The notes below the pieces were generated by a model that was not told the DNA's origin, searched no databases, and worked only from the letters and a program-made list of their open reading frames with translations. A stretch of 64,000 nt of DNA from a virus (taxonomy: Duplodnaviria; Heunggongvirae; Uroviricota; Caudoviricetes): IMG/VR virus record IMGVR_UViG_2622736468_000003. The stretch is one strand, 5' to 3'. Positions within the stretch are counted from its first letter, which is position 1, and every line of letters starts with the position of its first letter. Of the stretch, positions 33,067 to 33,681 are shown piece by piece. The position numbers and the translations under genes are program-made.

Positions 33067-33681
33067 TCACTGGGTAAGCTCGTTTGGTTTTAAATGTCCG
33101 TCGAGAATCAGATTGTGATTTTCCCGATGCAGAACCAGTGTGCCCATATAATCAGGTTTAAATCTCCATCCATTCATTTTTTTTGCAATTCTGGACAGAC
33201 AGTGATTATGTGTGAAAATCACAGTAACATGATCTGATTTTGATATTTTAAGGATATTATTTACTGCGTTATCATCACATGTCGATATGTCCGGAATAGT
33301 TGCTGTCTTACCTCCCGAAAAAAAAGTGGCTGTCTGCATTGTTCGGAGTGTGTCTGTAGAATAGAGACTGTAGTATGGAAACATTCTTCTGAATTTATCT
33401 CCATATTGTTGAGCTTTGTTAGCTCCGTTTACTGTGATTCCCTCATGTGCTGAAAGACATATTCTTTGGGAGCGATCGCATCTTTCCCCATGCCGGATGA
33501 GAAAAATAATGGGATGTTTCTGGTTAATCTCAGTGACATCGTTCACATCAAGTCTGACTGGAGTTCTTACAATGTATATGATAGATACAGAAACGATTAT
33601 GACAAGTAAAAATATAAGAAGAGATTTTGTTAGCGTTTGATTTAACATATAAATTCCCTTGTCTGTGTTGAAAATGGGCAT
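33067..33681 (-). CDS. Histidine phosphatase-family protein resembling Ais/PmrG (LPS core heptose(II)-phosphate phosphatase)
   Basis: N-terminal membrane anchor; RHGERCDRS (RHG motif), TVNGANKA, VIFTHNHCL, FKPDY parallel recalled E. coli Ais; AT-rich. Confidence 0.6.
   Translation of the reverse strand: MPIFNTDKGIYMLNQTLTKSLLIFLLVIIVSVSIIYIVRTPVRLDVNDVTEINQKHPIIFLIRHGERCDRSQRICLSAHEGITVNGANKAQQYGDKFRRMFPYYSLYSTDTLRTMQTATFFSGGKTATIPDISTCDDNAVNNILKISKSDHVTVIFTHNHCLSRIAKKMNGWRFKPDYMGTLVLHRENHNLILDGHLKPNELTQ

Follow-up and report, generated by a model that had tools for sequence, protein, structure and literature searches.

What does a gene that runs against the late operon of a lambdoid prophage offer the bacterium carrying it, and which signal might switch it on? 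We addressed this question for a minus-strand gene at positions 33067..33681 of the IMG/VR virus record IMGVR_UViG_2622736468_000003, of which a stretch of 64,000 nucleotides—hereafter, the window—was analysed. The window is a lambdoid prophage of the 933W/Shiga toxin (Stx) type (Sepvirinae-like), and the gene, here termed the ais-like gene, places an Ais-family enzyme in the well-known moron slot of bor and iss. A first-pass annotation of this DNA had identified the enzyme correctly, and the family identity is not new, as the PGAP annotation in RefSeq already names the gene likewise. The non-obvious feature of the locus, absent from the first-pass annotation, is an arnB-type promoter with a PmrA box that is conserved across prophage lineages. 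Our literature search turned up no study of an Ais/PmrG paralog carried by a prophage, nor of how such a gene is regulated.

An Ais/PmrG-type phosphatase and its relatives

The minus strand of the window contains an intact open reading frame (ORF) of 204 amino acids at 33067..33681, as first described; the start assigned to it did not hold up in the same way, and the second ATG (33648, M12) is most likely the true start on sequence grounds. This choice yields a coding sequence of 193 amino acids at 33067..33648, which is how the identical gene is annotated in RefSeq (WP_000934362.1; 582 nt, 193 amino acids), and most homologs have 191-194 amino acids. A Shine-Dalgarno sequence read from the DNA, AAGGGA (33655..33660, minus strand), lies 6 nt before this ATG, and in other prophage lineages a purine-rich block aligns with it. 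The first ATG (33681-33679) was rejected as a start: no Shine-Dalgarno sequence precedes it, it shares bases with the predicted -10 hexamer described below, and two of the diverged prophage lineages (L019 and L003) do not have it. The 193-residue form is further supported because the predicted transcription start (~33672-33675) falls 3' of the first ATG.

Profile searches bore out the proposal of an Ais/PmrG-like histidine phosphatase. The NCBIfam model PRK15416 (NF011945), which describes the subfamily of heptose(II)-phosphate phosphatases of the lipopolysaccharide (LPS) core, matched the protein with 201.9 bits against a cutoff of 142 (E=7e-60), and Pfam His_Phos_1 (PF00300) matched residues 59-125 with 28.7 bits against a cutoff of 21.7 (E=1.3e-6). 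For calibration, PRK15416 gave 392 bits for Ais of E. coli K-12, 366 for Salmonella PmrG, 294 for TraG of IncI1 plasmids and ~202-208 for other paralogs on mobile elements. A second NCBIfam model, NF052369 (PmrG equivalog; cutoff 170), scored the window protein at 113 bits, and it was dropped as a membership test because the genuine Salmonella PmrG and K-12 Ais, at 146 bits each, fall below its cutoff too; this model is evidently aimed at a different group. Members of the family, with 25-35% identity, also occur in many Pseudomonas genomes.

The active-site residues are in place. Across an alignment of 48 sequences (193-residue numbering), R52, H53, R56, C57, D58, R59, S60, C64, G70, T72, Q105, A107, F110, V143, F145, H147, H149, C150 and Y167 are invariant, and E55 and R102 are conserved in at least 90%. 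The motif RHGERCDRS (33469..33495, minus strand; residues 63-71 in the 204-residue numbering) thus combines the catalytic Arg-His pair with residues specific to the Ais family, its R, H, R, C, D, R and S being invariant among the 48 sequences, and FTHNHC (33199..33216, minus strand) supplies the second catalytic His together with a conserved Cys—H147, H149 and C150 are all invariant. In the 204-residue numbering, R63-H64-G65 forms the N-terminal RHG motif that carries the catalytic His and Arg, while the second Arg corresponds to R113 (within TLRTMQTA, at least 90% conserved) and the second His to H158 (within FTHNH, invariant); these last two were placed in the phosphate pocket by motif analogy. 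With RHGERCDRS, TxRTxQTA and FTHNHC all retained, the alignment with Ais called for in the first-pass annotation revealed no loss of catalytic Arg or His residues, and the sequence comparison confirmed that the protein is a histidine phosphatase of the Ais/PmrG subfamily. The protein also contains four Cys residues, of which three are invariant family-wide, and this Cys content fits a periplasmic domain. Searches with the protein found no family in PHROGs and no defence match in PADLOC, so that it is uncatalogued as a phage protein.

To examine the fold, we searched the PDB by sequence, where no match was found at E<=1, and then turned to structure prediction. An AlphaFold2 model built from the family alignment had a predicted local distance difference test (pLDDT) score of 92.2 and a predicted template modelling (pTM) score of 0.85. 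When this model was compared with the PDB using Foldseek, the top 50 matches listed were all branch-1 histidine-phosphatase folds or proteins containing one (MutT1-type), with the phosphoserine phosphatase 5zkk as the best (E=6e-8) and PhoE, CobC and RosC also among the matches listed; SixA (1ujb) reached a Foldseek TM-score of 0.69, normalised to the target. The predicted fold is thus that of a branch-1 histidine phosphatase. At the N-terminus, the model places a helix at residues 2-26, which overlaps the hydrophobic segment SLLIFLLVIIVSVSIIYIV (33568..33624, minus strand), a predicted signal anchor or transmembrane helix with a mean Kyte-Doolittle hydropathy of 3.06 over 19 residues. An AXA cleavage site was looked for at the N-terminus and none was found. 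The membrane anchor suggested at first pass therefore agrees with both hydropathy and model, and it is plausible that the protein is held in the membrane by an uncleaved N-terminus.

The window protein shares with Salmonella PmrG and E. coli Ais the subfamily model, a length of ~190-200 amino acids, an N-terminal export signal, the four Cys residues with three family-invariant, and the motifs RH(G/A)ERCDRS...C...GIT, TxRTxQTA and VIFTHNHC, as well as a link to the PmrA/BasR regulon, which for the window gene is predicted from its promoter. Several features set it apart, however. It is 36.5% identical to either protein when the full length is compared and 43-45% identical within the catalytic domain, and a neighbor-joining tree resolved the chromosomal Ais/PmrG proteins as a clade of their own, with the window protein in a mobile clade alongside copies from prophages and IncF plasmids and copies linked to fimbrial or AraC-family genes, and with IncI1 TraG as a further branch. 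Moreover, the chromosomal ais gene adjoins arnB (pbgP) and diverges from it, whereas the window gene occupies the prophage moron slot between the Rz and small terminase (terS) genes, and the synteny expected of an ortholog was not found. The hydrophobic region of K-12 Ais is weaker and ends in THA|AW, in contrast to the strongly hydrophobic, uncleaved-looking anchor of the window protein; likewise, the window gene has its own gene-facing PmrA-type box, whereas the box in the intergenic region between chromosomal ais/pmrG and arnB faces arnB. Taken from sequence, tree and gene neighbourhood, the window protein is a mobile-element paralog, not an ortholog, of Ais/PmrG.

Relatives on plasmids and islands were also examined. 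TraG of IncI1 plasmids is, like the window protein, an Ais-family phosphatase on a mobile element, with 45.6% identity over the catalytic domain; unlike the window gene, its gene is co-directional within the tra operon and has no PmrA box. The paralog occurs in ~1,440 PLSDB plasmids, e.g., pHU590 (L120, 2378-2962), and its hosts are almost entirely conjugative plasmids of Escherichia, Salmonella, Shigella and Klebsiella. According to an excerpt of PMC4288162, traG is largely dispensable for transfer of pESBL in transposon-insertion sequencing (TIS) data (value, 0.79). More distant paralogs (41-52% identity) on plasmids and islands (L027-L033, L036 and L118) are neighboured by chaperone-usher fimbrial operons (AAF-like and CS1/Tcf-like), EAL-domain genes, AraC-family regulators and a SPATE autotransporter, in a recurring association of Ais-like enzymes with adhesin loci.

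A promoter laid out like those of the host PmrA/BasR regulon

Upstream of the ais-like gene, the minus strand contains a direct repeat that resembles a PmrA/BasR box, CTTAAG-gatta-CATAAG (33696..33712), with one mismatch to YTTAAK-N5-YTTAAK—the consensus (C/T)TTAA(G/T)-N5-(C/T)TTAA(G/T) given in excerpts of PMC10729948 for the E. coli arn promoter and of PMC10927774 for Salmonella. Exactly 10 nt downstream of the repeat lies the predicted -10 hexamer AATAAT (33680..33685), itself conserved across lineages, so that the promoter reads, in gene orientation, as box (33712-33696), 10 nt, AATAAT (33685-33680), ~20 nt, AAGGGA, 6 nt and ATG.

The host promoters of this regulon have the same architecture. 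In K-12, the arnB box CTTAAGgttaaGTTAAT is separated by the 10-nt spacer attctatcct from the -10 hexamer TAAAAT, the eptA box CTTAAGgttggCTTAAT by tttgctttgc from GAGCAT, the waaH box CTTAATagtttCTTAAT by acaaagcctg from TAAAAC and the pmrR box CTTAAGgttcaCTTAAT by ctctgacgcg from CATACT; in 13 further enterobacterial genomes, the arnB promoter follows the same layout. The window promoter and these four thus have in common a direct repeat separated from the -10 hexamer by exactly 10 nt. They differ in that the window has CATAAG as its second half-site, and its box is a site predicted from sequence.

Seven or eight prophage lineages that have diverged from one another retain this arrangement. 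Their ais-like alleles, with 50-76% amino acid identity, lie on the opposite strand in the same slot between endolysin or Rz and terminase, in prophages with three different lysis cassettes (GH108, M15-peptidase and lysozyme) and with packaging genes of the Nu1 or DUF1441 type. A 10-nt spacer is combined with the -10 hexamer AATAAT in L016-18 (box CTTAAGgattaCATAAG; gatca in L017), in L019 (CTTAAGgattcCTTAAG) and L136 (CTTAAGgactcCTTAAG), which were grouped together, and in L154 (CTTAAGgatttTTTAAG), the last of which was confirmed as a lambda-like prophage. With the same spacer length, the box ATTAATtgcctCATAAG of L003 precedes TATAAT, the box GTTAAGattttCTTAAT of L004/L116 (with which L142 was grouped) precedes TATATT, and the box GTTAAGatttcCTTAAT of L115 precedes CATAAT. 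When the upstream regions of the lineages were aligned using MAFFT, conservation was confined to the half-sites, the -10 hexamer and the Shine-Dalgarno/ATG region, and nothing aligned 5' of the box. Among the coding sequences, pairwise dS (synonymous divergence) ranged from 0.65 to saturation and dN/dS (the ratio of nonsynonymous to synonymous divergence) from 0.15 to 0.36, which indicates that the protein is under purifying selection. Conservation of the box and the -10 hexamer alone, where synonymous sites are saturated, is what selection on a binding site predicts.

We based the argument for the box on its position and conservation rather than on the number of such boxes. In shuffles of each 130-nt upstream region, a box equal to or better than the real one, in register with the -10 hexamer, arose with P = 1e-4 to 7e-3 per lineage. 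Paralogs outside the prophages provided a further comparison: no in-register box was found upstream of the plasmid copies linked to fimbria, EAL or SPATE genes (P0036/P0038/P0031-type), of the AraC-linked copies or of the truncated plasmid copies, nor at ~50 IncI1 traG loci, and in the copy from an IncF plasmid (L121) a box with one mismatch is present but out of register with a -10 hexamer. A box generic to AT-rich DNA upstream of family members was thus ruled out, as the paralogs examined have none in register. The promoter of the ais-like gene therefore appears to be built like the host PmrA/BasR promoters, and we infer from this likeness that phosphorylated BasR (BasR~P) would activate it.

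A related copy, 69-70% identical, was found in a Salmonella and a metagenome locus (L034/L135) next to a Tcf/CS1-type fimbrial operon. An element of the insertion sequence (IS) family IS3 ends ~45 nt upstream of its start codon, where it replaces the PmrA-box region and brings in a TATAAT-like sequence; this insertion may represent a promoter swap.

Proposed role and competing explanations

One explanation, which we regard as probable though well short of certain, is that the ais-like gene is a lysogenic-conversion moron that encodes an Ais/PmrG-family phosphatase acting on heptose II (HepII) of the LPS core under a BasR-controlled promoter. With the late operon silent in the lysogen, the antisense gene would be transcribed from its own promoter. 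BasS would sense Fe3+, Al3+ or mild acid, and BasR~P would occupy the box at the -35 position and bring in RNA polymerase, as happens at arnB and eptA, so that the gene would probably be induced together with the arn/eptA LPS-remodelling regulon of the host. The uncleaved N-terminal helix would anchor the product in the inner membrane and leave its catalytic domain, with predicted disulfides, in the periplasm. There, by homology to PmrG, the enzyme would most likely remove the phosphate added by WaaY to HepII of newly flipped LPS, using the phospho-enzyme mechanism of the superfamily through His53, and would thereby lower the negative charge of the core alongside the host modifications with 4-amino-4-deoxy-L-arabinose (L-Ara4N) and phosphoethanolamine (pEtN). 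The analysis itself established family membership, catalytic residues, predicted fold, moron anatomy, purifying selection and the conserved promoter layout; the substrate, the membrane topology, the binding of BasR and any benefit to fitness or phage resistance are predictions.

Several observations weigh against this explanation. In a passage of PMC8129183 that cites Nishino 2006, PmrG is described as removing phosphate from heptose II of the LPS core; this characterised enzyme is only ~37% identical to the window protein across its full length, with 43-45% identity in the catalytic domain, and the K-12 record still labels Ais as putative. A truncated paralog carries the legacy name "transcriptional activator AfrS", for which no directly relevant paper was found in our literature search, and other paralogs reside in conjugation or fimbrial operons, which suggests that the role of the family may exceed core dephosphorylation. 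The anchor of the ais-like protein contrasts with the cleavable-looking signal of Ais, so that localisation and access to substrate may differ. On the side of regulation, the second half-site of the window allele, CATAAG, breaks the consensus inside the TTAA core, for which a CCTAAG half-site in Klebsiella, cited in an excerpt of PMC10927774, offers a precedent of variation at position 2. Boxes with at most one mismatch are also not above chance in the 64 kb (4 found, 3 expected), and the prophage lineages share ancestry, which means that their promoters are not independent samples. Finally, chromosomal ais has no box facing itself—its sole box is oriented towards arnB and lies ~190 nt upstream—and PmrA control is therefore not uniform across the family.

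The same fold and periplasmic site could also serve a different substrate, i.e., another envelope phosphomonoester or, as for SixA, a phosphoprotein, in which case the RefSeq name would be an over-transfer. Candidates include heptose I (HepI) phosphate or pyrophosphoethanolamine, Kdo (3-deoxy-D-manno-octulosonic acid) or lipid A 1-diphosphate, and an undecaprenyl-linked intermediate. A PRK15416 score roughly half that of true Ais/PmrG (202 vs 366-392 bits), a place in a separate mobile-element clade, SixA as the best size-matched structural neighbour, and paralogs in settings as varied as the IncI1 tra operon, fimbrial operons with EAL-domain and AraC-family genes and the copy named AfrS would all agree with such a divergence. 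We nevertheless consider it rather unlikely: ERCDRS, C64, GIT, Q105, HNHC and Y167 are invariant across the chromosomal and mobile clades, a pattern of family-specific residues that argues for a shared substrate pocket, while the PmrA-type promoter would place the gene in the LPS-remodelling regulon and the four conserved Cys residues suit a periplasmic enzyme rather than a cytoplasmic one of the SixA kind.

A role centred on the phage itself would dispense with BasR altogether. Under this alternative the biochemistry is unchanged, the repeat is not a BasR site, expression is constitutive, and the altered core charge blocks adsorption of competing LPS-dependent phages or stops released progeny from attaching to lysogens again. 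The inner-core heptose region is a receptor for many coliphages, the slot between Rz and terminase often holds surface-modifying or exclusion morons such as bor/iss, cor is found elsewhere in the same prophage, and the IncI1 plasmids that carry a paralog in ~1,440 records use a thin pilus that binds the LPS core. Such a role seems quite improbable given the blank PADLOC and PHROGs searches, the survival of gene and promoter in a packaging-defective prophage lacking terS, which fits a benefit to the host, and the conserved arnB-type box, which argues for conditional expression in response to host signals over constitutive exclusion. That the gene is a decaying, functionless passenger and its promoter a chance likeness in AT-rich DNA is disfavoured, and we hold it to be very remote, even though the window prophage is defective (with two IS elements and terS deleted), several plasmid copies are truncated and boxes in the window are not in excess of chance. 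Decay would not be expected to leave the ORF intact and at 99-100% identity across 46 complete genomes as well as 11 metagenome contigs, nor to produce the dN/dS values reported above or a box/-10 register maintained across lineages with saturated synonymous sites.

Should the explanation as a BasR-controlled HepII-phosphate phosphatase be correct, prophages—among them one from the O104:H4 outbreak lineage, as well as an Stx1-converting phage—would supply their hosts with a host-regulated LPS-remodelling enzyme, which could shift resistance to Fe3+ and cationic peptides, susceptibility to polymyxin and phage-receptor properties in pathogenic E. coli. The gene would then constitute a mobile, strain-variable member of the PmrA regulon, of relevance when colistin or polymyxin phenotypes are interpreted. 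A broader proposition stands, in our judgement, evenly balanced: that lambdoid/Stx-type prophages have wired a membrane-anchored Ais/PmrG paralog into the PmrAB (BasSR) regulon of the host via an arnB-type box, such that lysogens gain signal-dependent dephosphorylation of the LPS core, and that IncI1 conjugation operons and plasmid fimbrial loci recruited the family independently, the copies examined there having no promoter-positioned box. If so, tuning of inner-core charge would emerge as a general strategy of mobile elements, in the hands of a poorly studied phosphatase family that has spread over prophages, IncI1 plasmids and fimbrial islands.

The moron slot, its occupants and its surroundings

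The genes of this region follow the order Q, a nanS-p-like esterase gene, DUF1378, holin, lysozyme, Rz, the ais-like gene (on the opposite strand), terS, terL (the large terminase gene) and portal. The Rz spanin gene (32471..32986, plus strand; Pfam Phage_lysis, E=1e-36) closes the lysis cassette, and the convergent ais-like ORF lies 81 nt past its stop codon (32986), in line with the first-pass placement directly after Rz. Between the two genes, a GC-rich hairpin (32991..33008) has a T-run on the plus strand only; it is a terminator for Rz on that strand and possibly a bidirectional stop, with a minus-strand role that is weakly suggested. Gene and upstream spacer together form a low-GC island (33010..34200), so that the AT-rich upstream region noted at first pass is readily apparent: GC content is 36-40% over 33000-34200 and 53-56% in the flanks. 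The ais-like coding sequence has 37.2% GC and 33% GC at third codon positions (GC3), against 51-55% GC and 53-62% GC3 for lysozyme, Rz, terL and portal. A scan of 32900-34400 against Rfam at E<=1 returned no small RNA or riboswitch match.

Judged by its opposite strand, the GC dip, the separate promoter and the variable occupancy of the slot, the gene is a moron, i.e., lysogenic-conversion cargo, as had been proposed. It shares with lambda bor/iss the slot itself, the antisense orientation to the late operon, an own promoter and low GC content, together with expression from the lysogen and modification of the envelope, both of which are predicted for the ais-like gene. The proteins are unrelated, bor/iss being a serum-resistance lipoprotein and the ais-like product an enzyme, and the regulatory input of the ais-like gene is predicted to be BasR; we know of no such input described for bor/iss.

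Occupancy of the slot varies from phage to phage. The window allele was found in 46 of 5,426 complete genomes, and E. coli O104:H4, represented by C227-11 (gene locus AAF13_RS09505) and its relatives, is among the carriers of a 99.7% identical region. Among 50,697 phage records, a single one has a homolog—the Stx1-converting phage GER2 (Sepvirinae, Oslovirus; L122, MG710528.1, 9001-9615)—although the lysis cassette is common to 491 records. GER2 contains the full 204-codon ORF with one substitution (V38A), but its deposited annotation is limited to a C-terminal fragment of 273 nt. A Rha-family gene takes the slot in the O104:H4 Stx2a phage phiON-2011, and iss/bor, on the opposite strand, does so in other prophages (L119).

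To the right of the ais-like gene, comparison with the C227-11 prophage identified a remnant of terS (34252..34348, plus strand). An IS66-family element (34349-36790; TnpA, TnpB and transposase ORFs at 34386-36719) replaces 728 bp at this point, a stretch that held the greater part of terS plus the first ~29 nt of terL, and the resulting IS66/terS junction was found in no complete E. coli genome of the collection. The nanS-p-like SASA esterase gene is likewise interrupted, by an IS3-family element at 29110-30419. The prophage is thus defective, with two IS elements and packaging lost along with terS; the ais-like moron and its promoter are untouched by either insertion.

Two further observations concern the surrounding DNA. 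Upstream of the moron promoter, a piece of ~120 bp (33724-33850) has matches at 78-84% identity in ~300 E. coli genomes, where it follows an endolysin gene, underlies two tiny hypothetical ORFs and stands just before iss/bor. The piece includes a terminator-like hairpin on the plus strand (33782-33807), has no Rfam match, and may be the remnant of another lysis-cassette end that marks the boundary of the moron insertion. Additionally, compared with the O104:H4 C227-11 prophage, the window contains an extra ~780 bp at 25975-26755, just downstream of Q and at the position where Stx phages carry stx; this segment holds an ORF of 197 amino acids (26120-26713) with a DnaD_N domain match (E=2e-8).

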